From: an uncultured Candidatus Saccharibacteria bacterium
Lineage (GTDB): Bacteria; Patescibacteriota; Saccharimonadia; Saccharimonadales; UBA10212
Direction: 5' to 3'
Length of the DNA: 64,000 bases
Assembly: GCA_965231085.1 (NCBI GenBank)
Contig: OZ246413.1
Coordinates: forward strand, 91,991-155,990
The translations under genes were made by a program, and so were the position numbers. Position 1 is the stretch's first letter; the number at the start of each line of letters is the position of its first letter. The notes beneath the pieces were generated by a model, which made no database searches, was not told the origin of the DNA, and saw only the letters and a list, made by a program, of their open reading frames with translations. Below, in pieces: positions 30,770-46,710 of the stretch.

Positions 30770-30795
30770 AGCCCTCCGATAAGGAGGGCTTTTCT
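30770..30795 (+). terminator. Intrinsic terminator after the 5S gene
   Basis: agccctcc-gataa-ggagggct followed by tttt. Confidence 0.65.
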
Positions 30796-31021: not shown

Positions 31022-31050
31022 TTGACTCTGTCACGCTAAATAACCATAAT
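31022..31050 (+). promoter_or_regulatory. Putative sigma70 promoter of giant gene 1
   Basis: TTGACT (31022..31027), a 17-nt spacer, then CATAAT (31045..31050). The same hexamers and spacing recur upstream of giant gene 2. Confidence 0.55.
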
Positions 31051-31087
31051 TGGTATCAGGAAAACGAACAAAAAATTTATAAAACAA

Positions 31088-34000
31088 ATGGCACGCCAAA
31101 AAACAAAAATTTGCCTTTCGTGTAACCAGCTTTTTCGAGGTAGGCTGGATGCAAGAACCTGTTCGGAGCGGTGCCGTAAGCGTTTACAGAGAGCAAAGCT
31201 GCTAGTTGAACAAGAAGCTTCTGCAATTAAATCAGCTACTACGAATATAATTTCTGAGGTTGAGAATAAACTAACACCTTTCGCAACTGAGGAGGGGTTT
31301 GTCGGTGAATCACAGACTATAGCTACCACCCCATCACCTCAGTCGACTACTCAGCCGGCTATAGCTCAGTCACCGGTGATGCAGTCCCAGCCATCTGTGC
31401 AGCAACCTAGTGTTAACCCAGTTTCTCAGGCGCAAATACCAAGTGAGCCGATTTCTAGTTCTGTTACAACACCAACCCCTCAAACATTAATAGCGCCAAG
31501 CCCTATTCCAGTTGCGCAGCCACCAAAGGTAGAAACAGAACCGTTAGCGGTCTCATCTAGCCCGGTTGTTATCCCTCCGAGTCTAGAAAGCCCCCCCAAG
31601 GAGCCAACAACTCCATCCTCTGCGGTGCTCACTAAAAATGCCGAAGACTCCTTGGAGTTTATCCCTGCACAGACTGCCTCAGTTAGTTCACCGCTAGATG
31701 TTGCTACCCCGACAATCTTTGGCAATACCTATAGCCCTACAGCTACTCCTCGGACAGTAGAGGTTGCTCCACTAGGGCAAGGCGCACCTGCCCGACCTAA
31801 CTTGTCGAGCCCAATTCGCCCCTCCTCAATCCTCCCACCAGAGGCACCAAAGCCTCCTAAACCTCGGATGCCTAAGATCAACTTTCCATCTTGGGCTAAG
31901 ATGGCCATTGCTTCGACTGTGGTAATTTCGGCAGTAGCTATCGGTACATATCTCTTGGGCAACCAAAATGCCCAAACTAAAGTAAGTAACCAAACCACCA
32001 CCAATGCAGTTGCAGGGCAAGATGTTTTACCCTCAGGCTCTAACGTAACAAGCCTACACTTCAATAAAGCCGTCACCATAGATCAAGGGGCCAGCTTTAC
32101 TGCAACAGGCCCGTCAACATTTAAAAATCTAGCTAATTCGGCAGACGCATTTAATGTTCAAGCAGCCGATGGCACTAATCTGATAGCCGTTAATACTATT
32201 ACCGGTCTTGTAACTATAAACGGTATTCAAGGTTCGGGTGCATTGCTGACCAGTATTAACGCATCCAATATTACTAGCGGGACCCTGTCTAATTCACGGT
32301 TAGCTAGCAATGTAACACTGCTTGGTAATACCTTTAACGGGGCTAGCCAACTAGTCCAACTCAATTCGTCAGGGGCTATACCGGTGTTGGATGGTGCAAA
32401 CTTAACAAATGTTAATGCTCTCAGCCTACAAGGCAACGGTGCTAGCTACTACACCAACGCCAGCAATATAATTTCCGGGACGCTCAGTGACGTTCGATTA
32501 AGCACAAATGTAACACTGCTAGGCAATACCTTTAACGGAGCGGATCAACTAGTTAAATTAAACGGAATCGGCGGATTACCAGCTCTGAATGGTAGTCTGT
32601 TAACTAACCTGGACGCTTCTAACGTAAGCCTCGGAACTCTTAGTGATAGCCGTTTAAGCGCAAATGTCGCTCTACTTAATGGCACCGGCCCTCAAACTTT
32701 TACAGGTAGTAATAAGTTTACTGGCCCGACAGTATTCCAGACACTAACTAATGCTACTAATGCCTTCCAGTTGCAAAACCAGGCAGGGAACAACAACCTC
32801 ATAGTAGGCGACACCATAAACACTCGAGTTGGTATAGGCGTTGCAGCACCAAACTACACACTTGATGTTAACGGTGATGCCAACCTGGCCAACGGCCAAG
32901 CTTATCGTATTAACGGCGTAGCTGTTTGTACTAACGTTGGCTGTAACCCAAGTGGTGGGTCTAGCAGTTATGTCCAGGTTCAAGCCTCAACTCCTGGGTC
33001 TGCACAAACTGGTAATTCAAACATTACTGGCACAGCTATAGCTGGGTCGTTCTCGGGCTCTGGTTTAGGCTTAACCAACTTGGATGCTTCTCAGGTTGCT
33101 GCGGGTACCCTTAATGACTTGCGTTTGTCGGCCAATGTAACTCTTCAGGGCAATAACTTCAACGGCGCTAGCCAGCTGGTTCAAACAACTGCTTTAAGCT
33201 ATCTACCAGCGCTCAATGGCTCGCTACTCACCAACTTAAACGCTAGCAACATAGCTACGGGCACAATAGGTGACGCCCGGTTATCTGCTAATGTTGGATT
33301 ACTAAACGGTAACCAAACATACAGCGGCAACAATACTTTCTCTGGTAGCAATACCTTCAATAATGTAATTGTGGCCCCTGGCATTCAAACTACTAATACT
33401 GGCCACATAATAAACGTTGCATTCACCGGCACAGCCAGCGGCGCTTTGACCTATAACTTTGACGTAGCAGCTACCCCCGGAACCTATACTATCTGTACCT
33501 CCGTGGGCAACTGTTCTGGCGTAGGCGGAGGAGTTACCACCAGCGGCGGCACAATTAATAAAATTGCCAAGTTCAGCGGTTCACAGACTCTAGCTGACTC
33601 AATAATTACAGATAATGGCACGACAGTCACAATAGCTGGTAACCTCGCCGCCAACACAATTACCCAAAACGGCAATACTGTCTGTGACGTTGGCGGCAAC
33701 TGTGCCGGTGTTGGCGGGCAGGTGGGCACCTTCGGTACACCTACTGCCGGTACGATTGCATTGTTCCACGGCTCGGCCACTATAGAGAACTCAATTCTTA
33801 CTCAGTCTGCCGGTACCGTAACTGCGGGCGGTAACTTTAACGTAACTGGCAATTATCAAGTAAACGGTGTGCAGATAACTAGCGCTGTTTTGAGTAACGA
33901 TGCCAACATAGCTAAATTAAACGGCAACCAGACGTTTACTGGTAACCAAACATTCACTGGCACAGTGTTAATCCAGCCAGCCGTTGATAGCACTAGTATA

Positions 34001-37000
34001 TCGGTTATCCAGAATCACGCCGGAAACAGTAACCTATTTATTGCTGATACCAGCAATACCAGAATTGGTATAGGCAAATTGCCAGCCTACACGCTTGATG
34101 TAAACGGAGATATTAATGTGTCTACCGGCGGTTCTTACCGTATTAACGGTACTGCCATTTGTGGACCATCAACTACTTGTGCACCAAGCTCCGGCAGCAC
34201 TTCCTACATCCAAAACTCTGTAGCTCAGCAGACTAGCGCTAACTTTAACATCCAGTCTACAGCTACTGGATCGGTAGTGGGCGTATTGCAAGGTAAGAGC
34301 GGGCAGACAGCCGATCTTCTGCAAGTTAAGGATGGTTCGGCCAATACAGTATTATCAGTAGGTAACCAAGGCCAAACAATCTTTAAAGATAGTTCCGCCG
34401 GCTCGGCTACCTTCTTCCAGGTCCAAAATTCCTCCAGCGTATCTTTGCTTACGGCTAATACTACAACCGGTCAAATCTTACTGCCTAACGCAACTTTAGC
34501 CAGTACTGCACTATTGATTGGCGGCGACGCAAATCTGTACCGCTCAACTGCCTCTACTCTAAAGACTGATGGGAATGCGATAGTAGCCGGCGCAACAACC
34601 TCACTGGGCATATTGAACGCTAATGCTACGGGTAAAACAGCAATTACTATTGCGGACTCTGGTGCTCAAAACTCCGGCCTTACCATTGGGGGCGATACCA
34701 ACCTGTATCGCAGCGCTGCTGGTATACTCTCGTCAGACGCATCGAGCTTAAGACTTCAGTCCGGCACCAATACTCTCTACCTTGGATCTAATGGCTCGCA
34801 TATCTTGGGCGACCCATCCAATACTACTTTAGCCTTCGGAGGAAGCCTATATATTCAGAATGCCGCAGAGAGTGTGACCTATGGCAAATGGAACGCTACC
34901 GGGCTAGCCTTAGGTGGTAATGTTGCTGCAACTTCACAGCTGATGCTTGTATCCGATGCAGGCACAGCCGCCAGTGGTATAAAATTTGGCTCAACGGGCG
35001 ATACCAGCGTCTATAGAACAGCCGCTGGCTCACTGGCCGTTCAGGGCACCTCAAACTCCTCTACAGGCTTCCAAGTACTCAACTCAACAGGTACAGCCGT
35101 CCTGGCAGCCGATACCACCAACCAACAAATTAATGTAACTAACCTCCAATCCACTGGCTCCATTAGCCTACAAAACTCCCAAGGCGCCTCAATCCAACTA
35201 AGAACCGTATCTTCCTCCTCAACCGGCCTAACAGTCTCAGGCAATGAACTAACTGACAAAACTAGATCTACATCTACCCAAGGCGATGGCCGCCAAGCCC
35301 CAGACAGTAGCACGGGGGTGTGGGAAGGGACGACGAACTTAGCACCACTAGGTGGTGCAGAGAGCGCTATCTCACAATATTATCTAAACAACCAGAGTAT
35401 GACCATATCCAGAACCAGTGAAGTCGCTAAGTTTGGCACATATTCATTTAAAGCAGTTGGCAATGGTTCTGGTACTCAGTCTGTTGAGTGGCGAGGCGAT
35501 AATGTAGGCACGAGAGTAGCAGTTACGGCTGGTCAAACCTATACCATGTCCTTATGGGAGAAATCTTTGGCTAGCTATGCGAAAACACCAATACTCAATG
35601 TTGTTTACTACGATAACGGCGGTTCGATTATCCAAAACACTAATACCAGTGTTACTGTGCCCAGTCCTACAAGCTGGACTAGAGTTTCGTATACTACAAC
35701 AGCTCCAGCCAACGCCGTTAGCGTACGTCTAATATGGACCGTTCAAACCGTTGGAGCAGTAGGGGAAACATATTACTTTGATGGCGTACAATTCGAAAAT
35801 AAAGCTTACGCCACCCCTTATGTAGAGACAAATTTAGCTACGGCCAGCCGAACCGCGGCTGTTGTGACTGCACCTTCTGCTAATCTGAATACCACACAGG
35901 GTTGGGTTGCTGTAAGGTTCCGAGCAGGAGTGCCAAGTGGTATATCTGGCGGAAATGGAATTATCTCTTGGCGAGCTGACTCCAGCAACTATATTGACCT
36001 TTATTACAATGCTACATCTGGAACGAAGTGGAACGCTCGTCGGTCGGCAAGCAGCGGAACGATTAATGACGTTAATATTAGTAACTCCATTGCTGTTGGT
36101 GATCTAGAAACTGTTGTCTTTGCCTGGACTTCAACCCAGCTTATGCTAAGTGTTAATGGCTCTGCCTTTACAACCGCCTCGGATACGGCAATACCTTCTG
36201 GAATGCCAGCTACATTCAAGATAGGGCAGGGCGATGGCGGTGTTGGCAATCTTGACGGCGACATACTATGGATGGCTAGCGGCACTGGCACTCTAGCCAA
36301 CGCCGATGCTACAACTCTAAACGCCTACGGTAGTTCTGACCCAACACTATCAGGACTTGCATCACTAAACTCTGGTGCATCTTCCCCAGCTTTTGCTTGG
36401 GACGGAGTAGATACCAAATACTCTGGGACAAATGCTAGCTATGTTAACCAGTCTGGCATTGCAATTGATGATGTTAGCCTGACTCACTCGGCCAATGGCT
36501 CGTTAACACTGCAGGGTGCAGTAAACTCCACCACTGGTTTCCAGATACAGAACTCCTCAGCTACAGCACTTCTTACAGCAGACACCACAAACATGAGAAT
36601 ATCTGTTGGATCTATTGGTACAGCTACTGGGCAACTGTTTGTGGGCGGTAGACTGGCCGCAAGCAATACAAGTAGCGTTGCATACACGGGAGCTTATGCC
36701 CTCACAGGGCAGGGCAGTTATATATATGCGGTTGGGGGAAGTACGCTAAAAGTTTTGGACGCTTCTAGTCTTGCAATTGTAGGTTCCGTATCTACTAGTA
36801 CTGGTCCCCAAGCGGTTGCGGTAAGCGGTAAGTACGCCTACGTTGGAACAGGCAGCGGAGGAGGTAATAAATTTGAAGTTTATGATATTAGCAATCCATC
36901 AACACCAGTTAGTAAAGCATCAATCAGTACATCCCTTAGCTCTATCCTGGATATTAAGGTGCAGGGTAACTATGCGTACGCCGTCAGTCAGTCTGCAGCT

Positions 37001-39763
37001 ACAATGCAAGTTTTCAACATTAGCAATCCATCAAATCCGGTGTCTGTAGCAACATACACAACAGCAAGTTCAAACTTGCTGAAGATAAACATTCTGGGCA
37101 AATATGCATACATCGCTGGGTACAATACTAATAAGCTAGAAGTGGTTGATATATCTAATCCATCCTCACCAGTAAGTGCTGGTAACTTTACATTAAGCAC
37201 AGGTATTCCATATGGTTTAGCAGTACAAGGAAGGTACGCTTACATTGACGGAGGAACGGCCTTCCAGGTAGTAGATGTGTCCAACCCAGCTAGTATGAGC
37301 AGTGTTGCAACAACCACATCAGGGTCCAACCCGCTAGCCTTATATGCTCAAGGCAGATACGTTTATGCCGTTGATTACACGGACGCTTTAATAAAAGTTT
37401 ATGATGTCTCAACTCCGTCAGCCCCAACAGCTCAGGGCACAATTAGCACTGGTGCAAGTTCTGGGCCAAATTCGCTCTATGTACAAGGACGCTATGCCTA
37501 TGTAGCTAATAATGGAGGCAACACGGTGCAGGCTTACGACTTAGGTGGGGCATACGTACAGCAACTCGAAGCGGGCGGGGTAGAAGCAAGCACAATCCAG
37601 GTTGATAGTAGCCTTAAGGTTAACGGTGACACTAACATGCAAGGGGGGCTGAGTGTAGGCCAGAATCTACAGGTTAGTGGTAATATTGGCGCTAGTGGTG
37701 CAGCCTTGTTCCAGAATTCCACTAATTCAACCACTGCTTTCCAGATACAAAGTTCTACAACTACCTCTCTATTCAATGCAGACACGGCAGGCATGAACAT
37801 AACTCTAAATGGGGCCAATAATGCAGAAATTGGAAGTTGGGCAACTAACGCTAACTCCTTACCAGCAGCCCGAGAGCACGTAGCTACTGTTACCGCCAAC
37901 GGATATGTTTATGTGATGGGTGGTTGGTTAAGTGGCGCGCAATCCACCGTCTACTACGCCAAACTTAATACTGATGGCTCAACCGGTGCCTGGACGACCA
38001 GCTCTAACCCACTACCTTTAGCAAGAGCTAGGGCTCAGGCAACTGCGTACAACGGCTATGCCTATGTGCTAGGAGGATATGACGGTTCTTCTGCTGTAGC
38101 TACCGTCTACTACGCCAAACTAAACAGCGACGGTTCTACCGGCAGCTGGGCGACTAACACCAACGCTCTGCCAGCGGTTCGAACCTATGGTAGCGCAGTT
38201 GCCTATAACGGATTTATCTATATGGTTGGCGGTGATAACGGAACTGTAACCGGCCAATCCACCGTCTACTACGCCAAACTTAATGCTGATGGCTCAACCG
38301 GTGCCTGGACGACCAGCGCTAACCCGATAACCTCAGCTCGTATGGGGCACTCCTCGGTGGTTGCCAATGGTTACCTTTATGTACTAGGCGGAACTACTGG
38401 AGCCGACAACGCCATTACTAACACTGTTTATTATTCTAAGTTGAATAGCGATGGTTCAAATGGTTCTTGGAGTAGCACTAACACTATGCCAGCCAGCCGA
38501 GGTTATGGGGCGGCGGCTACAGTTAATGGGTACGTTTACTACCTGACTGGTTTTGACACCGGGAGTAATCCTAACTCTGGTATCTACTACGCCAGACTTA
38601 ATTCTGACGGCTCAACTGGCTCCTGGTCAACGTCGGCCAATTCTGCTACAACGGCTCTTGGAGCCTACCCAGGGGCAGCAGTCTCGAACGGCTACATCTA
38701 TCTGATCGGTGGTCGGGCCGGGTCTACTCAAGCTACCGTCTACTATACCTCTACCTCCCGTATCAAAGTGGGCGGATCGCTTGATCTGGTTGGCCTTGGC
38801 GGGCAAAATCTAAACGAAGGGAACACAGGCGGCTCAATAACGGCGGGGAACATAGCAGCCGTAGGATCGTTGCAGGTGCAAGGGGCTGCCAGCTTTGCAC
38901 AGGCCTTAAGTGTTAACGGAAGTATTAACGTGGCTGGCAGTGCGCTGTTCCAAAATGCGGCAAACTCAACTACCGCCTTCCAGATACTTAATGCTGCCGG
39001 AACCAGTATCCTAACAGTGGACACCTCTACAAGCGGTGGGGTCATAACCCTTGGCTCAGCCAGCTCTACCCCAGTTATATTAGTGCTTGGTAATAAGAAT
39101 ACTTCAGGCGACCCAACCTGTACTGACGGGGCAGTTTACTACAACTCTAATTCCACGCAAATTCGGGGATGTGTAAATGGCGCCTACAATAACATAGGCG
39201 GAGACAATGTAGTTACAGCCATCCCAACTACAAATCTATATGATGGTAGGAAAGTAAAGCTTCGAGCTGGCTCATCGCCTTATGATTTCGTTAGCTTGAC
39301 ATACGATGCTACCTACGGGAAATGGGTTTCGGATGAATCAGTAGCTATCGATACACCACAACAGCAAACAGCGACAGGGGCGCCAGGCGATACATCAATA
39401 TCGTATAGCGTTTTCTGGAAACCATACATAGATGCCGGATTAATCCCGCAGTTAAGGATGACCGGTCTTACGAATCACGATGCGACATCCACAAGCTCAG
39501 AATTAGGTTGGACGGCTCGACATGTTAGCGATTATGACTATGCTGCATCCGTACCAGATGATCTCACGACTATCATGACAACGTACGAGCAGCGCGCCCA
39601 AACAACTGCAAATAAATACGTTGGCATGAACATAAATTGGACAACGGTAACAAAACCAGCAACGCCAAAGGATATATTGTTAGTGAATATTTATGCGGGA
39701 GCCTCAGCTGGCGGGACACTATCCTATAGGGCTACGATATCGATACGTTGGGTTAGCCAATAG
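31088..39763 (+). CDS. Giant surface protein 1 (2891 aa). Domain order: cytoplasmic C4 zinc ribbon, P-rich linker, TM anchor, tail-fibre-like stalk, CBM4/9-like, LamG-like, 7 LVIVD repeats, 6 Kelch repeats, C-terminal tip
   Basis: A single uninterrupted ORF. The motifs were read from the translation (see findings). Confidence 0.85.
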   Translation: MARQKTKICLSCNQLFRGRLDARTCSERCRKRLQRAKLLVEQEASAIKSATTNIISEVENKLTPFATEEGFVGESQTIATTPSPQSTTQPAIAQSPVMQSQPSVQQPSVNPVSQAQIPSEPISSSVTTPTPQTLIAPSPIPVAQPPKVETEPLAVSSSPVVIPPSLESPPKEPTTPSSAVLTKNAEDSLEFIPAQTASVSSPLDVATPTIFGNTYSPTATPRTVEVAPLGQGAPARPNLSSPIRPSSILPPEAPKPPKPRMPKINFPSWAKMAIASTVVISAVAIGTYLLGNQNAQTKVSNQTTTNAVAGQDVLPSGSNVTSLHFNKAVTIDQGASFTATGPSTFKNLANSADAFNVQAADGTNLIAVNTITGLVTINGIQGSGALLTSINASNITSGTLSNSRLASNVTLLGNTFNGASQLVQLNSSGAIPVLDGANLTNVNALSLQGNGASYYTNASNIISGTLSDVRLSTNVTLLGNTFNGADQLVKLNGIGGLPALNGSLLTNLDASNVSLGTLSDSRLSANVALLNGTGPQTFTGSNKFTGPTVFQTLTNATNAFQLQNQAGNNNLIVGDTINTRVGIGVAAPNYTLDVNGDANLANGQAYRINGVAVCTNVGCNPSGGSSSYVQVQASTPGSAQTGNSNITGTAIAGSFSGSGLGLTNLDASQVAAGTLNDLRLSANVTLQGNNFNGASQLVQTTALSYLPALNGSLLTNLNASNIATGTIGDARLSANVGLLNGNQTYSGNNTFSGSNTFNNVIVAPGIQTTNTGHIINVAFTGTASGALTYNFDVAATPGTYTICTSVGNCSGVGGGVTTSGGTINKIAKFSGSQTLADSIITDNGTTVTIAGNLAANTITQNGNTVCDVGGNCAGVGGQVGTFGTPTAGTIALFHGSATIENSILTQSAGTVTAGGNFNVTGNYQVNGVQITSAVLSNDANIAKLNGNQTFTGNQTFTGTVLIQPAVDSTSISVIQNHAGNSNLFIADTSNTRIGIGKLPAYTLDVNGDINVSTGGSYRINGTAICGPSTTCAPSSGSTSYIQNSVAQQTSANFNIQSTATGSVVGVLQGKSGQTADLLQVKDGSANTVLSVGNQGQTIFKDSSAGSATFFQVQNSSSVSLLTANTTTGQILLPNATLASTALLIGGDANLYRSTASTLKTDGNAIVAGATTSLGILNANATGKTAITIADSGAQNSGLTIGGDTNLYRSAAGILSSDASSLRLQSGTNTLYLGSNGSHILGDPSNTTLAFGGSLYIQNAAESVTYGKWNATGLALGGNVAATSQLMLVSDAGTAASGIKFGSTGDTSVYRTAAGSLAVQGTSNSSTGFQVLNSTGTAVLAADTTNQQINVTNLQSTGSISLQNSQGASIQLRTVSSSSTGLTVSGNELTDKTRSTSTQGDGRQAPDSSTGVWEGTTNLAPLGGAESAISQYYLNNQSMTISRTSEVAKFGTYSFKAVGNGSGTQSVEWRGDNVGTRVAVTAGQTYTMSLWEKSLASYAKTPILNVVYYDNGGSIIQNTNTSVTVPSPTSWTRVSYTTTAPANAVSVRLIWTVQTVGAVGETYYFDGVQFENKAYATPYVETNLATASRTAAVVTAPSANLNTTQGWVAVRFRAGVPSGISGGNGIISWRADSSNYIDLYYNATSGTKWNARRSASSGTINDVNISNSIAVGDLETVVFAWTSTQLMLSVNGSAFTTASDTAIPSGMPATFKIGQGDGGVGNLDGDILWMASGTGTLANADATTLNAYGSSDPTLSGLASLNSGASSPAFAWDGVDTKYSGTNASYVNQSGIAIDDVSLTHSANGSLTLQGAVNSTTGFQIQNSSATALLTADTTNMRISVGSIGTATGQLFVGGRLAASNTSSVAYTGAYALTGQGSYIYAVGGSTLKVLDASSLAIVGSVSTSTGPQAVAVSGKYAYVGTGSGGGNKFEVYDISNPSTPVSKASISTSLSSILDIKVQGNYAYAVSQSAATMQVFNISNPSNPVSVATYTTASSNLLKINILGKYAYIAGYNTNKLEVVDISNPSSPVSAGNFTLSTGIPYGLAVQGRYAYIDGGTAFQVVDVSNPASMSSVATTTSGSNPLALYAQGRYVYAVDYTDALIKVYDVSTPSAPTAQGTISTGASSGPNSLYVQGRYAYVANNGGNTVQAYDLGGAYVQQLEAGGVEASTIQVDSSLKVNGDTNMQGGLSVGQNLQVSGNIGASGAALFQNSTNSTTAFQIQSSTTTSLFNADTAGMNITLNGANNAEIGSWATNANSLPAAREHVATVTANGYVYVMGGWLSGAQSTVYYAKLNTDGSTGAWTTSSNPLPLARARAQATAYNGYAYVLGGYDGSSAVATVYYAKLNSDGSTGSWATNTNALPAVRTYGSAVAYNGFIYMVGGDNGTVTGQSTVYYAKLNADGSTGAWTTSANPITSARMGHSSVVANGYLYVLGGTTGADNAITNTVYYSKLNSDGSNGSWSSTNTMPASRGYGAAATVNGYVYYLTGFDTGSNPNSGIYYARLNSDGSTGSWSTSANSATTALGAYPGAAVSNGYIYLIGGRAGSTQATVYYTSTSRIKVGGSLDLVGLGGQNLNEGNTGGSITAGNIAAVGSLQVQGAASFAQALSVNGSINVAGSALFQNAANSTTAFQILNAAGTSILTVDTSTSGGVITLGSASSTPVILVLGNKNTSGDPTCTDGAVYYNSNSTQIRGCVNGAYNNIGGDNVVTAIPTTNLYDGRKVKLRAGSSPYDFVSLTYDATYGKWVSDESVAIDTPQQQTATGAPGDTSISYSVFWKPYIDAGLIPQLRMTGLTNHDATSTSSELGWTARHVSDYDYAASVPDDLTTIMTTYEQRAQTTANKYVGMNINWTTVTKPATPKDILLVNIYAGASAGGTLSYRATISIRWVSQ
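35096..35337 (+). repeat. 242-nt tract identical, apart from one synonymous mismatch, to 44347..44588 in the paralogous gene
   Basis: Base-by-base comparison. The only difference is G35317 versus A44568. The flanks drop to roughly two-thirds identity. Confidence 0.95.
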
Positions 39764-39970
39764 AATCTATTAGGCAATAAGTAGTACAGCACAAAAACAA
39801 CTAACTGTGGATAACCATAAGCGTGATTGTGCAGGATACAACGCATAGAACAAACAAATAGTTCGAACGAAGTGTTTAGCATCAAAATACCTAACACCTT
39901 AAACTGGTAATACGTGTTATAACTTACACAACAATAAATTAACTAAAATAAGTGAGACTATGTGAGACAA

Positions 39971-40006
39971 AGTGAGACAAAAAACACCTTACGTGTCTCA
40001 CTTTTT
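39971..40006 (+). terminator. Terminator-like hairpin between the two giant genes
   Basis: Stem agtgagac/gtctcact with a 16-nt loop, then ttttt. It lies immediately upstream of the -35 box of gene 2. Confidence 0.45.
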
Positions 40007-40010
40007 CTCC

Positions 40011-40039
40011 TTGACTATGATTACATCTGTAACCATAAT
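40011..40039 (+). promoter_or_regulatory. Putative sigma70 promoter of giant gene 2
   Basis: TTGACT (40011..40016), a 17-nt spacer, then CATAAT (40034..40039). Confidence 0.55.
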
Positions 40040-40089
40040 TAGTGTTAGTTAATCGAACAAAAAAATTAACAAAAACAAATAAACAAAAA

Positions 40090-43000
40090 ATGGCTCGCCA
40101 AAAAATAAATACCTGTGTTTCCTGTAATCGGCTTTTTAAGGGCCGGTTAGATGCACGTACTTGTTCCGGAGCTTGCCGCAAACGTATCCAGAGAACAAGG
40201 CTAGCAGCCGAGCGCGAGGCTCTTGCATTAAAAAAAACGGTCGAAGATATTGTTGCGGCTGTTGAAGATAGAGTAATACCGTTTGCAACCGAAGAGGGGT
40301 TCGTTGGTGAGTCTGCTCTACCAGCTACCAGCTTACCAGCGCAATCTGTTTCATCTCGACCGATTGAACCTACTAGTGTTACACCAGTTCAGACTGCCTC
40401 CAACCCAGTTGTTAATCTGCCCCAGGCTAATATCCAGGAAACAACTCCGCCCAAAAGTCCGGTAATAGAGCAAATAGTTATGCCGCCGCAGCAACAAATA
40501 CCAACTCCTGCGGCCATTACCTCAAATTCGCAGCCAGCCACAGAAGAAACCCTAGAATATCCCCCGCACAGTTTTTTACCGGCTACCCCTGGAACCACTT
40601 TTCAGCCTACGGTTTCCAGCCCAGCTCCAGATATAACCTCTGGCTCAAGGGTTGAGCCAAACCTAGCAGTTAGCCAGCCAAGATATAATTCTAGTTCTGA
40701 CTTACCACAAGGCCCAGACTCATCCTTTTATCAAGCTTCGGCTCAACCAGGTATTTCGCCATCTAATCTATTATCATCTGAAAATCAGTCGAGATCTCAG
40801 GGGGCTAGGTTTGGTATCCCAGTTTGGGCTAGGATGGCCATTGTATCAACTCTATTAGTTTCCACTGTTGCCATTGGCACCTACTTACTAGGGAACCAAT
40901 CAGCACAAAATAAACTTAATAACCAAGCAAGCACTAGCACCACTGTTGCTGGCCAGGACGCGTTGCCCTCAGGCAGTAATGTTGAGAGTTTGCACTTTAA
41001 CAAAGCCTTAACTATCGACCAAGGAGCGAGCCTTACGACCACAGGAACTGCAACGTTTAAAAATCTGACTAATTCTAGCGATGCATTCAATGTGCAAAAG
41101 GCAGACGGCACTAAGTTAATCACCGTCAATACGGACACCGGAGTGGTAACAATTGCAGGTCTTCAGGGCTCAGGCACAGACCTAACTAACTTAAATGCCT
41201 CCAAACTTACTACCGGTACAGTTTCTGATGCTCGGTTAAGCACCAACGTAGCTTTATTAAATGGCACAGGCCCACAAACATTTACTGGAGACAACAGATT
41301 TGGCGGTGCAGCCTCGGTTCAGGGGGCCACAACATTAAATAACACGCTTACCGTTAACGGAAGTTCAGCATTTTTGAGCAGCTTACTATTAAAAAATGCC
41401 TCTGATTCTACTACTGCCTTCCAAATTCAGAATTCTGCTGGCACGAGCAACCTATTTGTAGCCGACACAACGAATACCAGAGTGGCTATTGGTCAGTCTG
41501 CAGCTGCCTATACCTTAGATGTTAACGGGAACGTAAATGTTACTGCTGGTAATACTTTTAAAATAGCTGGCACAGATATATGTTCGGCGTCTGGATGTAC
41601 GAGCGCCTCTAACTCAAACTACTACATACAGAACAGTACAGTTGTTCAGTCGGCTAACTTCGCTATACAGAGCTCTGCTGCTAGTAGCGTCGCAGCGGTA
41701 ATAAAAGGTGCAGTCAGCCAAACAGCTGATTTGTTACAGATTAAAGATGCCAATAACAACAGTTTGCTGACAGTTGGCCCTAGCGGCAGTACTTTAATTC
41801 AGACTCCAACTAACTCCACTACCGCCTTTCAAGTCCTCAACAACAACGGTACCTCACATTTAATAGTGGCTGACACCCTTAATGCTAGAGTAGCCATCGC
41901 CCAGCCAACTGCCAACTACGCCCTAGATGTAGGAGGCGACATTAATTCCACCACGGGTATACGAGTTGGTGGCAACCTGGTCTGCGATACGGTAAGTTGT
42001 ACTCCAGCTCCAGGTTCTGGCAGCTACATCCAAAATACTACTTCACTACAAACAGGCAACTTTGCTATACAGTCTGACTTAAATTCTCACATAGTCGCTA
42101 AGTTCAGAGGCGCCAGCGGCCAGAGCGCCGATTTAATCCAGGCTATCTCCGGCGACGGGGGTAGTACGGTTCTGAGTGTTGGGGCAACAGGGAATACGGT
42201 CTTTAGAACTGCCAGCGGCTTTGACTCAGCTACAGCATTTCAGGTGCAAAATGCGGCAGCTTCCCCAGTGTTCGGCGTTGATACGGTCAGCGGCAGGGTT
42301 GGCATAGGAACCAACGCACCAAATACATCCTTGCAAATAACTAATTTTTCGGATGCCAAGATTAGACTTCAAGGTTCAGCCTACGATACGCTTGTTTTCA
42401 ACAATGGAGCAACCGAAGAAGCTTACCTGAATTATGATATTGCCGGGACAACAGTAAACTTGTGGACTAACAATCGTAATCTTAGCATACTGCCAACTGG
42501 AACGGGCAAGGTAAGTATTGCCGGGACTCCTGCTAACAGCGTCTTAACAGTCGGTACTAATACTACCGCGGCCACAGGGGGCATATATTTTGGGACGGAT
42601 ACGAATCTCTATCGTTCCGCAGCTAGTACCTTATTTACAGACGGTGGGTTAACGGTAAATGGTACTCTACAAACTAAGAGCGATCTTACGGTTAGACAGG
42701 GCAATTCAACTCAACAACTGGTCATTGGTGCTGTAGGACCTTCTGGCCAGTCTGGTCTGTGGCTCCAGAACGGTGAGGCTGGCAGTAACCTTTATCGTTC
42801 TGCTGCGGGGGCTCTTAAGACCGATGGTGCTCTCACCGCCGTTGGGAATATTCAGGCAGCACGGTTTGAGGCAACTAGTTCCAGCTCCGACATGTTTCTT
42901 GTGCAGAGCGCAGACAGTGGCTCTAGATTACTGCTTTCAGCAAGAGTTAGTGGAGGAGCTGCCAATATGTTCTCTGCTAGAGTCAATGGCCAGCTGCTCT

Positions 43001-46000
43001 GGGGAGATGGGACAGCGGCCCAAGATACTAATCTTTACCGCTCGGGTTCAAACGCGCTAACGACCGACGGCGCGCTTACCGTTGCGGGCCGCATAACCGG
43101 CAGCAGCGACCTAATACTATCCGGTAACCCAGCTGGCGGTAAGTTCTTGCAGCTTACTGGCAGTAACTCTACTATGGGCGGTGGTGCTGGCGGTGGTATA
43201 AATATTGCTTACAGTGCTGCCGCTGGCGGGGTTGGCACAATAGACAGACCTATACTCATAGCTGATTCAATCGCCAGCAGCGTTTCGGTGCCAAATCGTT
43301 ATGCAATATATGAATCCAATATCACGGTGGGTTCGGGCGGGTCGCTAACCAATAACTATGGTTTATATATGGAAAACCAAACCGCTGGTACCAATAACTA
43401 CGGTATTTACTTACAGGGTGCCAGCACGGCTACTGTCCAACTGGCTTCCGATGCCGGCACAGCTGCCAGCGGTATTAGTTTTGGCTCGGCTGCTGATACT
43501 AATCTTTATAGATCAGCGGCAGATACTCTAAAAACCAGTGATAGTTTCATAGTTGGCACTAACTTTACAGCCAATGGCACGGTACTAGTTCAAAATGCAT
43601 CTAATTCCACTACTTCCTTCCAAGTGCAGAATGCTGCCGGCTCACCAATCTTGAATGTAGACACTACAAACAAGCGGGTTGGCGTTGGTCTAGCAGCCCC
43701 GCTTGCGCCCCTACACGTTCTCAACGGTACGGCCGGTGCTACGTTTACGCCCGTAACAGATGAAACAATTGTGCTTCAAAGAAATCAGAATACCAATGAC
43801 AACGCGGTGCTTACACTAATTTCTGGTTCAGTAGGCGAAACCATAATACGCCTAACCAGTGCTGGCAATACGGAGTCAGGTAAAATTGGCTACAACAACA
43901 ATACGAGGACTTTATATTTCTTTACTAACGGCAGCCAAAAACTATCTCTCGATACCAACGGCACAATAGCTCTTACTGGCGGACAAACCAAAGATATAAC
44001 AACGGCTTCTGCCGGGACTTCAGCAGCCTTAGTCTTTGCCCCGGGTGACAGTACTACAAACTCTGGCACTGGTTCATCACTAACTTTGCGAGGTTCAAAC
44101 CAAACTGGTACTACTTCCGTTGGCGGCAATCTTGTCTTGCAGGGCGGAACAGGCACTTCTACCAATGGTCAAGTTCAGCTTGGTACCGCTAATACCAGCG
44201 CCATATCATTAGGTGCAAGCGGAATATTGACCACGAACAATGGTTCACTAACAGTTACACAGAACCTAACAGCTAACGGCACCGTTCTAGCCAAAAACGC
44301 CACCGACTCCTCTACCGCCTTCCAAATCCAAAACAGCAACGGAACCGCCGTCCTGGCAGCCGATACCACCAACCAACAAATTAATGTAACTAACCTCCAA
44401 TCCACTGGCTCCATTAGCCTACAAAACTCCCAAGGCGCCTCAATCCAACTAAGAACCGTATCTTCCTCCTCAACCGGCCTAACAGTCTCAGGCAATGAAC
44501 TAACTGACAAAACTAGATCTACATCTACCCAAGGCGATGGCCGCCAAGCCCCAGACAGTAGCACGGGAGTGTGGGAAGGGACGACGAATTTAATTACCAA
44601 TGGTGGACTGGAGACGGATCTTACAAACTGGAGTGGACAATCAAATGTTACGCTGGCGCGCACCACTGCAATTAGCAAGTTTGGAACTGCCTCAGCCCAG
44701 GCTTCCACCACTAATGGTGGTGCTCAGAACGCAGTTCTTCTAACATCAACCAAGCCTGGGAGCAATGGGACGATGATATGGTCTTTCTGGGCTAAAACAT
44801 CGAGTGGAACAGGTTCTATAAACGTGGGCGCGTTGTCTGACAACGTGAGTTCTTTGACTGCGCTGGATGGATTATCCATAAACACTGCTTGGCAGCGTTA
44901 TCGTTTTTCATTCACTTTTACCAACGCAGCATCACCAAACATTAATCCATACATAGCTCTGGCTACTACGGGGATCAACTACTACTTTGACGGCATGCAG
45001 ATCGAGCAAAAAGCCTACGCTACACCTTATGTAGAAACTAACGGCGGTACTGCTAGCCGCAGCGCCGCAGCTGTTCAAGCTCCTGTGGCGGTTACAAACG
45101 CTACCCAGGGCTGGGTGGCAGTAAGGTTTAGAGCTGAATGGTCAGCCGATCCAGGCAGCACTGGCTATGAGTTGTTCGGATGGGCTGACAATAATACACA
45201 TTACTACAGTCTGTTTTATGGTACTGGCAATGGTAACAATCTTAATTTTGTCCGAGCTAACGGGTCGGGTGGGGCTAACGCCGACAAGGTCCAGCAGTCA
45301 TTTACACCGACCGTAGGCGGCTTAGTTACAGCAGTCGCCCGTTGGGACAGCGGCAATGTTTACCTTAGTGTAAATGGTGGAGCATTTGCTTCAGTTGCCG
45401 GAGCACACATTCCGACTTTGGCTGCATCCACCTTCTATATAGGTGGAGGTAGTGCGACAAATATTGGTCAAGCAGATGGCGAAACCCTGTGGTTCGCTTC
45501 CGGCACCGGCACCCTAACAAATTCTGATGCCACAACTCTCAATGCCTATGGCAATTCTGACCCAACAATTGCTGGTTTAACTTCTCTAAACTCTGGTGCT
45601 GCTACGCCGAGCTTTGCTTGGAGCGGAGTAGATGCTAAGTATTCTGGCACAAACGCTAGCTATGTTAGCCAATCGGGTATCTCTCTGGACGACACTACTC
45701 TATACCGCAGTAGCGCAAACACTCTTGCTAGTAATAACAATTTTCTACTACAGTCGAGTACCAACAGTGCGACTGCTTTTGTAGTGCAGGACGCCAATAG
45801 CAGTAGCTACCTAACCATAGATACGTCCGGGAGCAACATCTACCTTGGGGCTTATACGCCCGCAACGATTCAAATTGGTATAGCAAGCGGAAATGCTAGC
45901 GCTCAGACAATAAATATTGGCAATAATTCAACAGCTAGCTCATCGACAACTATTAATATCGGCTCAACGATTGGCACTAGCCCGTTAACCTTGCAGGGTG

Positions 46001-46710
46001 GCAGCACTGGTACGAAAATAAAATCTACATCTACCACCGCCTTTGTTATACAGAAAGCTGATGCCACAGGGACCATATTTACCGCCGATACCTCAACAGG
46101 CGCCATAACCGTGGCTGGTACTCTAACGGCATCAAACGGGCTAACCATCAGTAGCGGTAGCTTAGTAACTAGCAGTACGGGCATATATGTTAGTGCTTTG
46201 CCAGGCTCTCCGGTGGACGGCCAAGAAGTTTACTATAAGGCTGATGCAACAAACGGAGTTATCTGGCACTTGAGATATAACGCAGGATCAGCAAGTACCT
46301 ATAAATGGGAATATCTAGGCGGCGCTCCACTTTCATCTTATGTAGCTACTAGCGAAGGGACCACTTCCACTACCTATGCTGCGTTGCCCACAGCCGGACC
46401 GTCGATTACAGTGCCAAATGAAGGCGATTATTGGATCGAAATAAGCGCTCGCTTAAGTCGCAACGGTTCGGGAGTAAACGAAGCAGGCTATATGTCCTAC
46501 GATATTGGAGGCACAGGAGCGGCTGATGTGGATGCTATAGGAGCTAACTTCACCTTGGGTTCTACTGGCGTTACGACCACCGACTCACGATCAAAACTAA
46601 AAACAGCCATAGCAGCGAGCACAGCTATAACTGGCAAATATCGAGTAACCGGCGGCAATGGAGGTTTCGATGAAAGAACGATGCGAATAACTCCCGTAAG
46701 GATAAAATAA
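40090..46710 (+). CDS. Giant surface protein 2 (2206 aa from ATG 40090). N-terminal architecture as in protein 1, with a longer stalk, CBM4/9-like and LamG-like modules and a different distal part
   Basis: The track start at 40042 is a GTG only 3 nt after the predicted -10 box. ATG 40090 gives MARQK..., which is collinear with protein 1. Confidence 0.85.
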   Translation: MARQKINTCVSCNRLFKGRLDARTCSGACRKRIQRTRLAAEREALALKKTVEDIVAAVEDRVIPFATEEGFVGESALPATSLPAQSVSSRPIEPTSVTPVQTASNPVVNLPQANIQETTPPKSPVIEQIVMPPQQQIPTPAAITSNSQPATEETLEYPPHSFLPATPGTTFQPTVSSPAPDITSGSRVEPNLAVSQPRYNSSSDLPQGPDSSFYQASAQPGISPSNLLSSENQSRSQGARFGIPVWARMAIVSTLLVSTVAIGTYLLGNQSAQNKLNNQASTSTTVAGQDALPSGSNVESLHFNKALTIDQGASLTTTGTATFKNLTNSSDAFNVQKADGTKLITVNTDTGVVTIAGLQGSGTDLTNLNASKLTTGTVSDARLSTNVALLNGTGPQTFTGDNRFGGAASVQGATTLNNTLTVNGSSAFLSSLLLKNASDSTTAFQIQNSAGTSNLFVADTTNTRVAIGQSAAAYTLDVNGNVNVTAGNTFKIAGTDICSASGCTSASNSNYYIQNSTVVQSANFAIQSSAASSVAAVIKGAVSQTADLLQIKDANNNSLLTVGPSGSTLIQTPTNSTTAFQVLNNNGTSHLIVADTLNARVAIAQPTANYALDVGGDINSTTGIRVGGNLVCDTVSCTPAPGSGSYIQNTTSLQTGNFAIQSDLNSHIVAKFRGASGQSADLIQAISGDGGSTVLSVGATGNTVFRTASGFDSATAFQVQNAAASPVFGVDTVSGRVGIGTNAPNTSLQITNFSDAKIRLQGSAYDTLVFNNGATEEAYLNYDIAGTTVNLWTNNRNLSILPTGTGKVSIAGTPANSVLTVGTNTTAATGGIYFGTDTNLYRSAASTLFTDGGLTVNGTLQTKSDLTVRQGNSTQQLVIGAVGPSGQSGLWLQNGEAGSNLYRSAAGALKTDGALTAVGNIQAARFEATSSSSDMFLVQSADSGSRLLLSARVSGGAANMFSARVNGQLLWGDGTAAQDTNLYRSGSNALTTDGALTVAGRITGSSDLILSGNPAGGKFLQLTGSNSTMGGGAGGGINIAYSAAAGGVGTIDRPILIADSIASSVSVPNRYAIYESNITVGSGGSLTNNYGLYMENQTAGTNNYGIYLQGASTATVQLASDAGTAASGISFGSAADTNLYRSAADTLKTSDSFIVGTNFTANGTVLVQNASNSTTSFQVQNAAGSPILNVDTTNKRVGVGLAAPLAPLHVLNGTAGATFTPVTDETIVLQRNQNTNDNAVLTLISGSVGETIIRLTSAGNTESGKIGYNNNTRTLYFFTNGSQKLSLDTNGTIALTGGQTKDITTASAGTSAALVFAPGDSTTNSGTGSSLTLRGSNQTGTTSVGGNLVLQGGTGTSTNGQVQLGTANTSAISLGASGILTTNNGSLTVTQNLTANGTVLAKNATDSSTAFQIQNSNGTAVLAADTTNQQINVTNLQSTGSISLQNSQGASIQLRTVSSSSTGLTVSGNELTDKTRSTSTQGDGRQAPDSSTGVWEGTTNLITNGGLETDLTNWSGQSNVTLARTTAISKFGTASAQASTTNGGAQNAVLLTSTKPGSNGTMIWSFWAKTSSGTGSINVGALSDNVSSLTALDGLSINTAWQRYRFSFTFTNAASPNINPYIALATTGINYYFDGMQIEQKAYATPYVETNGGTASRSAAAVQAPVAVTNATQGWVAVRFRAEWSADPGSTGYELFGWADNNTHYYSLFYGTGNGNNLNFVRANGSGGANADKVQQSFTPTVGGLVTAVARWDSGNVYLSVNGGAFASVAGAHIPTLAASTFYIGGGSATNIGQADGETLWFASGTGTLTNSDATTLNAYGNSDPTIAGLTSLNSGAATPSFAWSGVDAKYSGTNASYVSQSGISLDDTTLYRSSANTLASNNNFLLQSSTNSATAFVVQDANSSSYLTIDTSGSNIYLGAYTPATIQIGIASGNASAQTINIGNNSTASSSTTINIGSTIGTSPLTLQGGSTGTKIKSTSTTAFVIQKADATGTIFTADTSTGAITVAGTLTASNGLTISSGSLVTSSTGIYVSALPGSPVDGQEVYYKADATNGVIWHLRYNAGSASTYKWEYLGGAPLSSYVATSEGTTSTTYAALPTAGPSITVPNEGDYWIEISARLSRNGSGVNEAGYMSYDIGGTGAADVDAIGANFTLGSTGVTTTDSRSKLKTAIAASTAITGKYRVTGGNGGFDERTMRITPVRIK
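44347..44588 (+). repeat. Partner copy of the 242-nt near-identical tract (see 35096..35337)
   Basis: Base-by-base comparison. Confidence 0.95.

Follow-up and report, generated by a model that had tools for sequence, protein, structure and literature searches.

What is the function of a sequence motif that punctuates two giant ORFs, or does it recur there without relation to the modules that it separates? We addressed this question in a 64-kb window (the whole stretch of DNA analysed) from an uncultured Saccharibacteria (CPR) bacterium, Saccharimonadales. Both ORFs, termed P1 and P2, are chromosomal genes located beside an rRNA operon and housekeeping genes, and they are not part of a prophage. 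The ORFs and their N-terminal features are as follows.

31088..39763, + strand: P1 giant ORF, 2891 aa
31112..31174, + strand: P1 CxxC...CxxxC zinc-ribbon-like motif, aa 9-29, read from the translation
31901..31969, + strand: P1 predicted transmembrane helix, aa ~272-294, Kyte-Doolittle scan
40042..46710, + strand: P2 giant ORF, 2222 aa counted from GTG
40834..40902, + strand: P2 predicted transmembrane helix, aa ~265-287, Kyte-Doolittle scan

The true start of P2 is likely the ATG at 40090, giving 2206 aa, as this is the length of library protein P0030, which scores the same as P2 across the compared region. P1 starts with the Cys4 zinc-ribbon-like motif, followed by a P/S/T-rich linker, the transmembrane helix and eight motif-headed modules that include CBM/LamG-like, LVIVD, Kelch and tip modules; P2 has an N-terminus of the same type, again with eight motif-headed modules after it. 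The zinc-ribbon-like motif of P1, presumed to be cytoplasmic, has no match in Pfam, and such a feature recurs in 27 of the 151 family proteins scanned. By Kyte-Doolittle scan, 125 of these 151 carry a hydrophobic anchor or signal at the N-terminus, and basic residues N-terminal of the predicted helix suggest an N-in, C-out orientation of P1. The domain search of P1 and P2 identified no S74 chaperone domain, and neither ORF has a PHROG match.

An HMM seeded from regex matches yielded eight strong motif copies per giant ORF, 16 in total, with i-Evalues of 3e-12 to 5e-23 and every other match at 0.006 or worse. Copy starts determined by HMM are the first residues listed below, with P2-2 starting at aa 447 and P2-7 at aa 1899/1902.

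32108..32242, + strand: motif copy P1-1, aa 341-385; HMM, shuffle test, cross-validation
32723..32860, + strand: motif copy P1-2, aa 546-591; then capping-loop-like stretch RVGIGVAAPNYTL
33959..34096, + strand: motif copy P1-3, aa 958-1003; heads a 135-aa shaft module, capping-loop-like stretch next
34373..34507, + strand: motif copy P1-4, aa 1096-1140; heads an NLYRSAA-repeat-rich segment
35027..35161, + strand: motif copy P1-5, aa 1314-1358; heads a CBM_4_9-like + Laminin_G_3-like module
36497..36631, + strand: motif copy P1-6, aa 1804-1848; followed by the LVIVD propeller module (36632-37696)
37697..37831, + strand: motif copy P1-7, aa 2204-2248; followed by the Kelch propeller module (37832-38935)
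38936..39070, + strand: motif copy P1-8, aa 2617-2661; heads the C-terminal tip module
41044..41178, + strand: motif copy P2-1, aa 335-379; HMM, shuffle test, cross-validation
41377..41514, + strand: motif copy P2-2, aa 446-491; heads a 135-aa shaft module; pLDDT 84-95 (AF2 model 2)
41785..41922, + strand: motif copy P2-3, aa 582-627; heads the second 135-aa shaft module
42190..42330, + strand: motif copy P2-4, aa 717-763; then capping-loop-like stretch RVGIGTNAPNTSL
42856..42933, + strand: weak, degenerate possible ninth P2 copy, aa 939-964; i-E 0.0057 and 0.0013
43576..43710, + strand: motif copy P2-5, aa 1179-1223; then capping-loop-like stretch RVGVGLAAPLAPL
44278..44412, + strand: motif copy P2-6, aa 1413-1457; heads a CBM/LamG-like module (44413-45735)
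45736..45870, + strand: motif copy P2-7, aa 1899-1943; HMM, cross-validation
46000..46137, + strand: motif copy P2-8, aa 1987-2032; heads the C-terminal tip

A P1-only HMM recovered exactly the eight P2 copies plus the one weak ninth (aa 939-964, i-E 1.3e-3), and a P2-only HMM exactly the eight P1 copies, which removes the circularity of the regex-seeded search. Real copies score 42-67 bits, compared with a best score of 5.8 bits in 400 composition-matched shuffles, and scanning the window in all six frames turned up the 16 copies in P1 and P2 and no others. The count of eight per protein given in an earlier note on this DNA is therefore borne out by HMM, cross-validation and six-frame scan alike. 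All example peptides quoted there are present in the translations, and the interval that it assigned to the motif extends from the Phe of the first copy through the end of the last. Its estimate of ~25 aa was too short, as the conserved unit spans ~45 aa (G-x-x-L-F-[QK]-N-x-T-[ND]-S-T-T-A-F-Q-[IV]-Q-N-A-A-G-x-x-L-[LF]-x-[VA]-D-T-T-N-x-R-[VI]-G-I-G), with four predicted beta strands and no conservation found upstream of the motif start.

Polar positions within this unit, S11, Q18, N19, D29 and T30, are conserved at 78-88% (S 0.83, Q 0.88, N 0.78, D 0.87, T 0.87). Conservation of polar residues this strong is unusual and, together with an N-S-T tripeptide in about half of the copies, might point to a functional site repeated along the fibre. 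The [ND]-S-T-T stretch could serve as a glycosylation sequon, or the motif could be a site of processing or a rung that binds ligands or ions. However, 37% of copies carry Asp at position 10, which would abolish a sequon, and searches of Pfam, NCBIfam, PHROGs and PDB sequences gave no match linking the motif to an enzyme or binding family. Ladders of conserved Asn, Gln and Thr are common in beta-helices for structural reasons alone. We consider a functional site of this kind very improbable.

A wider search with the 16-copy profile, as proposed in the earlier note, uncovered a large Saccharibacteria family along with a few phage ORFs: a cut-off of E<=1e-3 admits 3,284 representative proteins, of which 240 also pass E<=1e-30. 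Top matches are giants of 2-6.4 kaa with 4-24 copies each, related genomic loci belong nearly throughout to Saccharibacteria, and on IMG/VR contigs (L003, L004, L006, L007) phage tail-fibre-like ORFs carry the motif as a single copy. This unannotated motif is common to thousands of related giant proteins. Copies are spaced irregularly, from 30 to >800 aa, with modes near 135, 200 and 410 aa. Clustering of 1,256 inter-motif segments at >=70% reciprocal coverage resulted in 485 clusters, of which 110 have at least two members. Module types comprise 135-aa shafts, Kelch, LVIVD, FG-GAP and tips, with weaker matches to CBM_4_9-like, Laminin_G_3-like and SO2946-like C-terminal domains, and each large module family has 10-30 different neighbours both upstream and downstream.

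Motif copies coincide with the borders of these modules. Unrelated modules of P1 and P2 align with one another over their first 30-45 residues only, i.e. over the motif. In a BLAST comparison of 151 family proteins, 28% of homology-block starts lie no more than 10 aa from the start of a motif, as do 5.5% of random positions, and 26% of block ends lie at a motif end, compared with 5.3% at random. This roughly fivefold enrichment is partly inflated by construction, because alignments run on through whatever is conserved in all members. Irrespective of neighbours, the N-terminal half of the motif is ~0.48 identical. Identity of the C-terminal half increases from 0.35 to 0.41 for copies that share the downstream module family, compared with 0.36 when the upstream family is shared. 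The motif also divides tandem modules of the same type, such as the 135-aa modules at P2 447, 582 and 717. The claim that it precedes each change of module type stands insofar as it heads heterogeneous modules, but fails for the CBM_4_9-like and Laminin_G_3-like domains, which share one inter-motif segment with no motif between them. Its description as a generic inter-module adaptor is backed by boundary enrichment, module permutation and the motif-only alignment of unrelated modules. These data support the conclusion that the motif is a discrete conserved island heading heterogeneous modules, both here and across a large family.

Such borders could be maintained at the level of DNA, if the motif were kept mainly as a recombination site for homologous or microhomology-mediated swaps of whole modules between paralogues and alleles. 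The window contains a single tract that appears consistent with this:

35096..35340, + strand: near-identical tract, P1 copy, 245 nt, 2 mismatches to the P2 copy
44347..44591, + strand: near-identical tract, P2 copy, 245 nt, 2 mismatches to the P1 copy

Previously described as 242 nt, this tract is real and begins in the second, C-terminal half of the motif copies at P1_1314 and P2_1413. Identity at third codon positions is 1.0 within it and about 0.1-0.5 in the flanks, which we interpret as recent gene conversion on the basis of the sequence. Some near-identical tracts in related loci (L014, L015, L050) likewise begin or stop in a motif, and in family proteins the blocks of homology are bounded by motifs. 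The conversion tract, however, ends outside any motif, the P1 copy stopping at the start of the CBM-like domain. Apart from the conversion pair, motif copies share exact identity of <=13 nt, with a median of 7 nt that equals the control segments, and RecA-dependent exchange usually needs roughly 20-30 nt, so that the shared identity falls far short. Of 20 boundary pairs that delimit near-identical tracts near motifs, in the window or in related loci, ~5 fall inside a motif, no clear enrichment given that the motif occupies roughly 15-18% of these giant genes. Conservation moreover acts at the protein level, with the same polar residues kept across proteins <50% identical overall. The suggestion that the motif is a substrate for module shuffling is not upheld by these breakpoints and identities, and we regard its retention as a recombination site as unlikely.

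To examine the fold, a motif-module-motif construct was modelled by AF2 as a single chain (model 2, mean pLDDT 83.5). Motif residues reach pLDDT 84-95 and are predicted to form the strands AFQI, NLFVAD, RVAI and LDV, which in the model run on unbroken from preceding strands. A separate neck domain, as envisaged earlier, is not what the model displays, since the motif lies within an uninterrupted run of strands; even so, it stays closely linked to the borders of modules. Set against the refuting case named in the earlier note, this outcome is mixed. In the Foldseek search of the PDB, the first ten ranks all belong to Bdellovibrio MAT fibres (Bd1334, Bd3182, Bd2439), with Bd2133 at ranks 15 and 27. 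Local matches to MAT cover 42-51 residues at rmsd 1.8-3.1 A and probability 0.96-0.99, the best E-value of 8.8e-3 not being significant, and TM-scores of the PDB matches are low because the monomer model is extended. BFVD gave 19 matches at E<=1e-3. Most of the annotated ones, next ranks included, are tail-fibre proteins or proteins with an S74 'intramolecular chaperone', with E-values down to 1.4e-5. A capping loop fitting the MAT/S74 consensus V-G-G/N-pi-x-x-P-x-x-x-L (PMC10769870) is present after 4 of the 16 copies in P1 and P2 and after 24% of copies across the family.

A single chain that reaches high local confidence without partner chains would also suit monomeric, beads-on-a-string adhesins, in which the motif is a small autonomous beta-meander linker domain between beads and the likeness to trimeric fibres merely local. 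Propellers of the Kelch, LVIVD and FG-GAP types are normally monomeric domains and are found here in series, and three Kelch or LVIVD propellers per shaft level would be bulky, which makes a monomer conceivable. The motif+module profile also weakly matches the CAP/CARP beta-helix (1K8F; whole-sequence E 2.9e-4, domain i-Evalue 0.018). On the other hand, the top structural matches are consistently intertwined trimeric fibres, and the capping-loop motif and phage tail-fibre homologues indicate trimeric relatives. Residues 91-119 of model 2, although of good pLDDT, have no DSSP strand partner, and their partners would lie on other chains. A monomeric arrangement thus seems rather doubtful.

We favour, as the probable explanation, that P1 and P2 are envelope-anchored modular surface fibres of the S74/MAT structural kind, and that each module has the TAFQ motif as its conserved N-terminal leader. 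The approximately four short beta strands of the motif would carry on the beta-rich shaft from the preceding module. Behind them would come either a shaft module of the capping-loop/beta-helix type (VGIGxxxPxxxL) or, directly, a globular domain for binding (Kelch, LVIVD, FG-GAP, CBM-like or tip). With a universal N-terminal half (NSTTAFQ[IV]QN) and a C-terminal half that co-varies with the module downstream, the motif would act as a standard structural joint, such that any module could be placed after any other with the fibre staying in register. A joint of this type could account for the very large, freely permuted module repertoire. We infer a trimeric state, this register-keeping role and an adhesive function, the likely purpose of the fibres being recognition of and adherence to host bacteria or their glycans.

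The closest known counterparts are the 'mosaic adhesive trimer' (MAT) fibres of Bdellovibrio bacteriovorus (Bd3182, Bd2133, Bd1334, Bd2439; Caulton et al. 2024, PMC10769870). Like these, P1 and P2 are predicted to be surface-displayed fibres of a bacterium living on other bacteria, with beta-helical shaft domains of ~100-135 aa (fold predicted for P1/P2) carrying VGxG..P...L capping loops and with interchangeable ('chimeric') binding domains. An LxVD..RVGIG..P.YxLDVxGD stretch is common to the Bdellovibrionales loci and the motif region, whereas the strict TAFQ motif is found in 0 of the 4 Bdellovibrionales loci examined. MAT fibres comprise ~1,000 aa and vary at the tip alone, whereas P1 and P2 reach 2-3 kaa (up to 6.4 kaa in the family), and as many as 24 modules follow one another, internal propellers among them. 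P1 and P2 also differ in being without an S74 chaperone domain, and a trimeric state is putative for them; their own N-terminus is zinc-ribbon-like with a predicted transmembrane helix.

S74-type phage fibres and tailspike stalks, such as T5 pb1 (4UW8) and K1F endosialidase (3GW6), both with an intramolecular chaperone, share the predicted shaft fold (BFVD matches), the capping-loop motif and, in phage tail-fibre-like ORFs, single TAFQ copies. In contrast, P1 and P2 are chromosomal, outside any prophage and devoid of S74 domain or PHROG match, and they harbor many motif copies per protein, compared with a single one in the phage ORFs examined (L006, L007). Giant repetitive adhesins (RTX, Big-domain) are very large, anchored by their N-terminus or to the cell wall and serially modular, with ligand-binding domains along or ending the stalk. 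P1 and P2 resemble them in size, predicted N-terminal anchoring and serial modularity. Stalks of those adhesins consist of tandem Ig-like domains with no separate conserved joint motif, whereas modules of P1 and P2 are heterogeneous, each placed behind the same 45-aa leader.

The TAFQ motif had been described, from the sequence alone, as occurring eight times in each of the two giant proteins, here termed P1 and P2. An HMM seeded with regular-expression matches and run on both proteins recovered eight strong copies per protein, their i-Evalues lying between 3e-12 and 5e-23, with all remaining matches scoring 0.006 or worse. To guard against circularity, separate HMMs were built from the P1 copies and from the P2 copies only. 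The P1-derived model retrieved all eight P2 copies and, beyond them, just a weak ninth match at aa 939–964; the P2-derived model retrieved the eight P1 copies and nothing else. Real copies score 42–67 bits versus at most 5.8 bits in 400 shuffles of the two extracellular regions, and a six-frame scan of the 64-kb window yielded no copies beyond the 16. The weak match, a possible degenerate ninth P2 copy (window positions 42856–42933, ARFEATSSSSDMFLVQSADSGSRLL), has i-Evalues of 1e-3 to 6e-3.

The conserved unit spans ~45 aa, rather than the ~25 aa first proposed. Its family consensus, derived from 1,183 copies, reads G-x-x-L-F-[QK]-N-x-T-[ND]-S-T-T-A-F-Q-[IV]-Q-N-A-A-G-x-x-L-[LF]-x-[VA]-D-T-T-N-x-R-[VI]-G-I-G, with S11, A14, F15, Q18, N19, G22, D29 and T30 as top-conserved positions (76–88% each). 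The motif is a discrete island, since no residue in the 25 positions upstream of it exceeds 30% conservation. No model or chain covering the 45 aa was found in Pfam-A, NCBIfam, PHROGs or PDB sequences; against the latter, the motif profile returned an NHL match only, at chance level (E=1.1).

The profile of all 16 copies, whose use in a wide search the earlier note had suggested, was scored against 1.84 billion representative proteins and matched 3,284 at E<=1e-3; the count falls to 1,073 at E<=1e-10 and to 240 at E<=1e-30. The best 150 matches are 651–6,397 aa long and carry 4–24 matched stretches each. A scan of GTDB species genomes, using a pattern taken from the adjoining 135-aa module, returned 74 loci, 58 of which contain the strict motif. 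Titles of these 58 give Saccharibacteria, Saccharimonadales, Saccharimonadia or Patescibacteria as the taxon or are taxon-less (“bacterium”, “uncultured bacterium”), with two exceptions: a 6.5-kb contig labelled Verrucomicrobiia and a contig labelled Gammaproteobacteria with a Saccharibacteria-like 23S. The strict motif was not found in four Bdellovibrionales, two Kaiserbacteria and two Bacteroidota loci or in the Magasanikibacteriota, Victivallales and Proteobacteria loci of the same scan, where the common stretch is confined to the downstream ...LxxxD..RVGIG..P.YxLDVxGD. In IMG/VR, a degenerate DNA pattern for TTAFQ[IV]QN matched 7 contigs; three matches are due to chance or out of context and four contigs hold a single genuine copy each, located in a tail-fibre-like protein in the two whose ORFs were read (L006 and L007). 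A full-text search of open-access papers and bioRxiv found none on this motif or on tail-fibre-like giant proteins in Saccharibacteria. The motif is genuine and far from random, and the large, unannotated family that it defines has its centre in Saccharibacteria.

In the window, which is part of a bacterial chromosome, P1 and P2 are encoded next to each other, downstream of an rRNA operon:

23452–25011, 16S rRNA, operon upstream of P1
27010–30367, 23S rRNA, same operon
30647–30761, 5S rRNA, same operon
31088–39763, + strand, P1, 2891 aa, directly after the operon
31112–31174, + strand, Cys4 zinc-ribbon-like motif of P1, presumed cytoplasmic N-terminus
40042–46710, + strand, P2, 2222 aa from the mechanical ORF
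40114–40176, + strand, Cys4 zinc-ribbon-like motif of P2, presumed cytoplasmic N-terminus

Besides this operon, the neighbourhood comprises the housekeeping genes gyrB, gyrA, ribosomal protein S1, IF-2 and a ROK kinase, and a prophage origin of the locus was therefore rejected. The nearest homologues of P1 and P2 come from Saccharibacteria and Patescibacteria, and the 16S of the window shares 92.8% identity with that of L046, a Saccharimonadales MAG. The 23S match covers 3,358 nt compared with a 2,925-nt model, implying ~430 nt of insertions; an ORF inside this gene (28985–29476, – strand) has no Pfam match. The mechanical P2 ORF begins at GTG 40042. An ATG at 40090 is probably the real start, because it gives an N-terminus (MARQK...) parallel to that of P1 and a length equal to that of the library protein P0030 (2206 aa).

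Each N-terminus consists of a CxxC...CxxxC motif, a ~230-aa P/S/T-rich linker and one hydrophobic helix, an architecture that would anchor both proteins N-in, C-out and place over 1,900 residues on the outside of the cell. The Cys4 motif, which recurs in 27 of 151 family representatives, is unusual for a surface fibre at its presumed cytoplasmic end; no Pfam family matched the N-terminal region including it. In the window and two further Saccharibacteria loci, giant motif-bearing genes lie directly 3' of the rRNA operon, past the 5S; in a third such locus they lie near the 16S (window 30647–31088; L055 ~9062–9880; L060 ~1617–2108; L046 ~5965–8096). As the adjacent gene in L046 and L055 also has the zinc-ribbon-type N-terminus of P1 and P2, this synteny appears conserved. 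The syntenic giant genes of all three loci are divergent, fragmentary or frameshifted, and orthologous breakpoints could not be mapped. The L055 contig (CAWJLN010000001.1), with seven motif copies and a giant gene split over several frames, is titled “uncultured Gammaproteobacteria bacterium”; its 23S is 83–93% identical to that of the window, and the contig or its MAG probably belongs to Saccharibacteria and is wrongly labelled or binned.

Two other repeats recur in both proteins. D-T-N-L-Y-R-S-A-A-x-T-L-K-T-D-G occurs at least nine times over P1 and P2, often shortly ahead of a TAFQ copy, and ~50-aa tandem repeats are of the type L-T-x-L-N-A-S-N-I-x-S-G-T-L-S-D-x-R-L-S-x-N-V-x-L-L-G:

~34570–35050, D-T-N-L-Y-R-S-A-A motif, P1 aa ~1160–1320
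~42590–43580 and ~45690, D-T-N-L-Y-R-S-A-A motif, P2 aa ~850–1180 and ~1885
~32243–32722 and ~33035–33310, ~50-aa repeats, P1 aa 386–545 and ~650–740
P2 aa 380–445, ~50-aa repeats

How the motif relates to module boundaries was assessed by comparing the segments between copies. Unrelated segments of P1 and P2 align with one another over their first 30–45 residues only, that is, over the motif, whereas homologous modules align at full length, as seen for the 135-aa module (three full copies) and a CBM/LamG-like module (52.6% identity over 490 aa). The reading set against the adaptor idea in the earlier note was that of one strand in a continuous beta-helix repeat, with no relation to domain boundaries. 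A periodic strand of this kind was rejected on the grounds of irregular spacing, which across the family ranges from 30 to more than 800 aa (modes at ~135, ~200 and ~410 aa). Cutting 150 proteins at their motifs produced 1,256 segments in 485 clusters (at least 70% reciprocal coverage), 110 of which are not singletons. Largest among them are those of the 135-aa shaft module (146 copies, 71 proteins), of CBM_4_9-like (82), Kelch (82), LVIVD (39), CBM plus LamG-like pair (22) and FG-GAP (9) modules, and of a C-terminal module with weak similarity to Phage_cement_2 (66); each large module family has 10–30 different neighbours both upstream and downstream. In an all-against-all BLAST, 28.5% of distinct homology-block starts are no more than 10 aa away from the start of a motif (5.5% for random positions) and 26.0% of block ends lie 30–50 aa past one (5.3%). 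Although such enrichment is partly expected of any universally conserved element, homology usually stops at the motif.

Identity of the C-terminal half of the motif is 0.41 between copies sharing the downstream module family compared with 0.35 otherwise, and a shared upstream family makes no difference (0.36). For the N-terminal half, identity stays at ~0.48 whatever the neighbours. This downstream-only covariation assigns the motif to the module following it, its N-terminal half being universal. The proposal that a copy precedes every change of module type holds in part: the motif does head heterogeneous modules, but it also separates identical tandem ones, and the transition from CBM-like to LamG-like takes place without it. 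Among the modules of P1, LVIVD (101.9 bits, cut-off 20.2) and Kelch_KLHDC2_KLHL20_DRC7 (75.5 bits, cut-off 50; PDB Kelch matches down to E=3e-17) exceed their Pfam gathering cut-offs. The module following copies P1_1314 and P2_1413 (named by aa start) stays below them with both CBM_4_9 (24.3 bits, E=4.4e-5, cut-off 25.9) and Laminin_G_3 (20.8 bits, cut-off 27.6).

Single-chain AF2 predictions were obtained for two P2 regions. The model of aa 436–775 (340 aa, 18 sequences) was poor (pLDDT 65) and gave only suggestive Foldseek matches. A motif–module–motif model (aa 446–627, 22-sequence alignment) reached a mean pLDDT of 83.5, with 84–95 and 88–93 for the two motif copies and a weaker stretch (59–79) from a two-Cys loop to about residue 100. 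Each copy forms strands at AFQ[IV], xL[FI]VAD and RVAI, then LDV, and the second directly follows the strands DLLQ, SLLTV and TLI in the part of the module before it. With its strands running straight on from these, the motif is predicted to prolong a beta-rich shaft, which speaks against the separate, conserved neck element considered before.

All top ten Foldseek matches of this model in the PDB are Bdellovibrio mosaic adhesive trimer (MAT) fibres, none at E<=1e-3: Bd1334 (E=8.8e-3), Bd3182 (51 columns, rmsd 3.1 Å, probability 0.98–0.99) and Bd2439 (42 columns, rmsd 1.8 Å, 31% identity) are among them, and phage HylP fibres and tailspikes rank next. In BFVD, 19 viral models match at E<=1e-3, and most of those there or ranking just below that carry an annotation are S74 “intramolecular chaperone auto-processing” or tail-fibre proteins. 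The C-terminal Peptidase_S74 chaperone is confined to the S74 subgroup, NS74 MATs lacking it, and neither P1 nor P2 has a Pfam match to it at E<=0.1. Two adjoining fibre genes of a homologous locus in a Bdellovibrionales MAG (L061 6770–14881; 1256 and 1443 aa), packed with GNVGIGTTxPxxxLDV capping-loop repeats, terminate in an S74-like chaperone; their PDB matches are 6F45, a T4-like long tail fibre, and 7DC3 (MyRF). They resemble textbook fibres of the MAT or S74 type and offer a useful outgroup.

In MATs, a capping loop of consensus V-G-G/N-pi-x-x-P-x-x-x-L marks the edges of intertwined trimeric beta-helix domains of ~100–135 aa (PMC10769870). By regular expression, the loop comes directly after four of the 16 copies here (P1_546, P1_958, P2_717, P2_1179), with two more variants lacking the Pro, and after 272 of 1,128 copies (24%) family-wide. 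It never precedes a Kelch or FG-GAP propeller and precedes LVIVD in 1 of 39 cases, which shows that the TAFQ element is separable from the loop. The profile of motif plus module (A5) weakly matches the CAP/CARP beta-helix 1K8F (whole-sequence E=2.9e-4, domain i-E 0.018) over 44 residues comprising motif strands and capping loop; we read this as common beta-helix rung periodicity and not as CAP/CARP membership.

The earlier note had also seen in the motif a plausible substrate for module shuffling, pointing to a near-identical tract that starts inside one copy. This tract was confirmed (35096–35340 versus 44347–44591; 245 nt, two mismatches) and starts within the second half of P1_1314 and P2_1413. 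Third-codon identity is 1.0 inside it compared with ~0.1–0.5 around it, and the tract therefore marks a recent gene conversion. An antisense ORF inside P2 that overlaps it (44175–44711, – strand, 178 aa) is most likely spurious. Excluding the conversion pair, the 16 copies share exact DNA of at most 13 nt, with a median of 7 nt that equals that of control segments; 13 nt of exact identity is too short for ordinary homologous recombination. In a small sample of 19 near-identical tracts (at least 90% identity, at least 80 nt) from the window and related loci, 10 lie near motifs, and ~5 of 20 of their boundary pairs fall inside the motif (offsets of 0, 22, 35 and 41 aa), the remaining boundaries being 24–260 aa away. 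Since the motif already covers roughly 15–18% of these genes, enrichment of tract boundaries in it is not clear. Over evolutionary time, exchange of modules at motif boundaries is evident. The motif itself looks to be conserved for structural reasons, and a mechanistic role of motif DNA is unproven.

The motif is best read as the leader of each module, a standard structural joint of modular fibres that are anchored in the envelope and have relatives in S74-type phage tail fibres and the MATs of Bdellovibrio; P1 and P2 may likewise be trimeric and serve adhesion. The 45-aa profile provides a simple sequence handle on an unannotated family of at least 3,284 representative proteins, many of 2–6 kaa, and lets them be parsed automatically into modules. 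As Pfam, NCBIfam and PHROGs lack the motif, many CPR genomes would be better annotated with a new family model. If these are MAT-like fibres, the modules that each one contains could be tested as predictors of host or glycan specificity, and the motif would set natural boundaries for module expression, swapping and engineering.

To our knowledge, host recognition and attachment by CPR/Patescibacteria epibionts are largely unknown. In the literature consulted, type IV pili and unspecified protein adhesins are given as their main means of adhesion (PMC10633639, PMC11623550). A bolder and quite tentative possibility is that the TAFQ motif acts as a universal plug-and-socket joint, with which Saccharibacteria combinatorially assemble host-recognition fibres from well over a hundred binding modules; the module content of the giant genes would then encode epibiont host range. 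MAT tips have been swapped in evolution (PMC10769870), and the plug-and-socket arrangement would be a cellular, multi-module counterpart of this and of phage tail-fibre swapping. P1 and P2 differ from their MAT and S74-type relatives in their internal propellers and apparently at the N-terminus, where MATs have an invariant anchoring domain and P1 and P2 a zinc-ribbon-like motif and TM helix. Unlike S74-type fibres they have no S74 chaperone domain, and whereas MAT fibres vary at the tip only, P1 and P2 string many modules in series.
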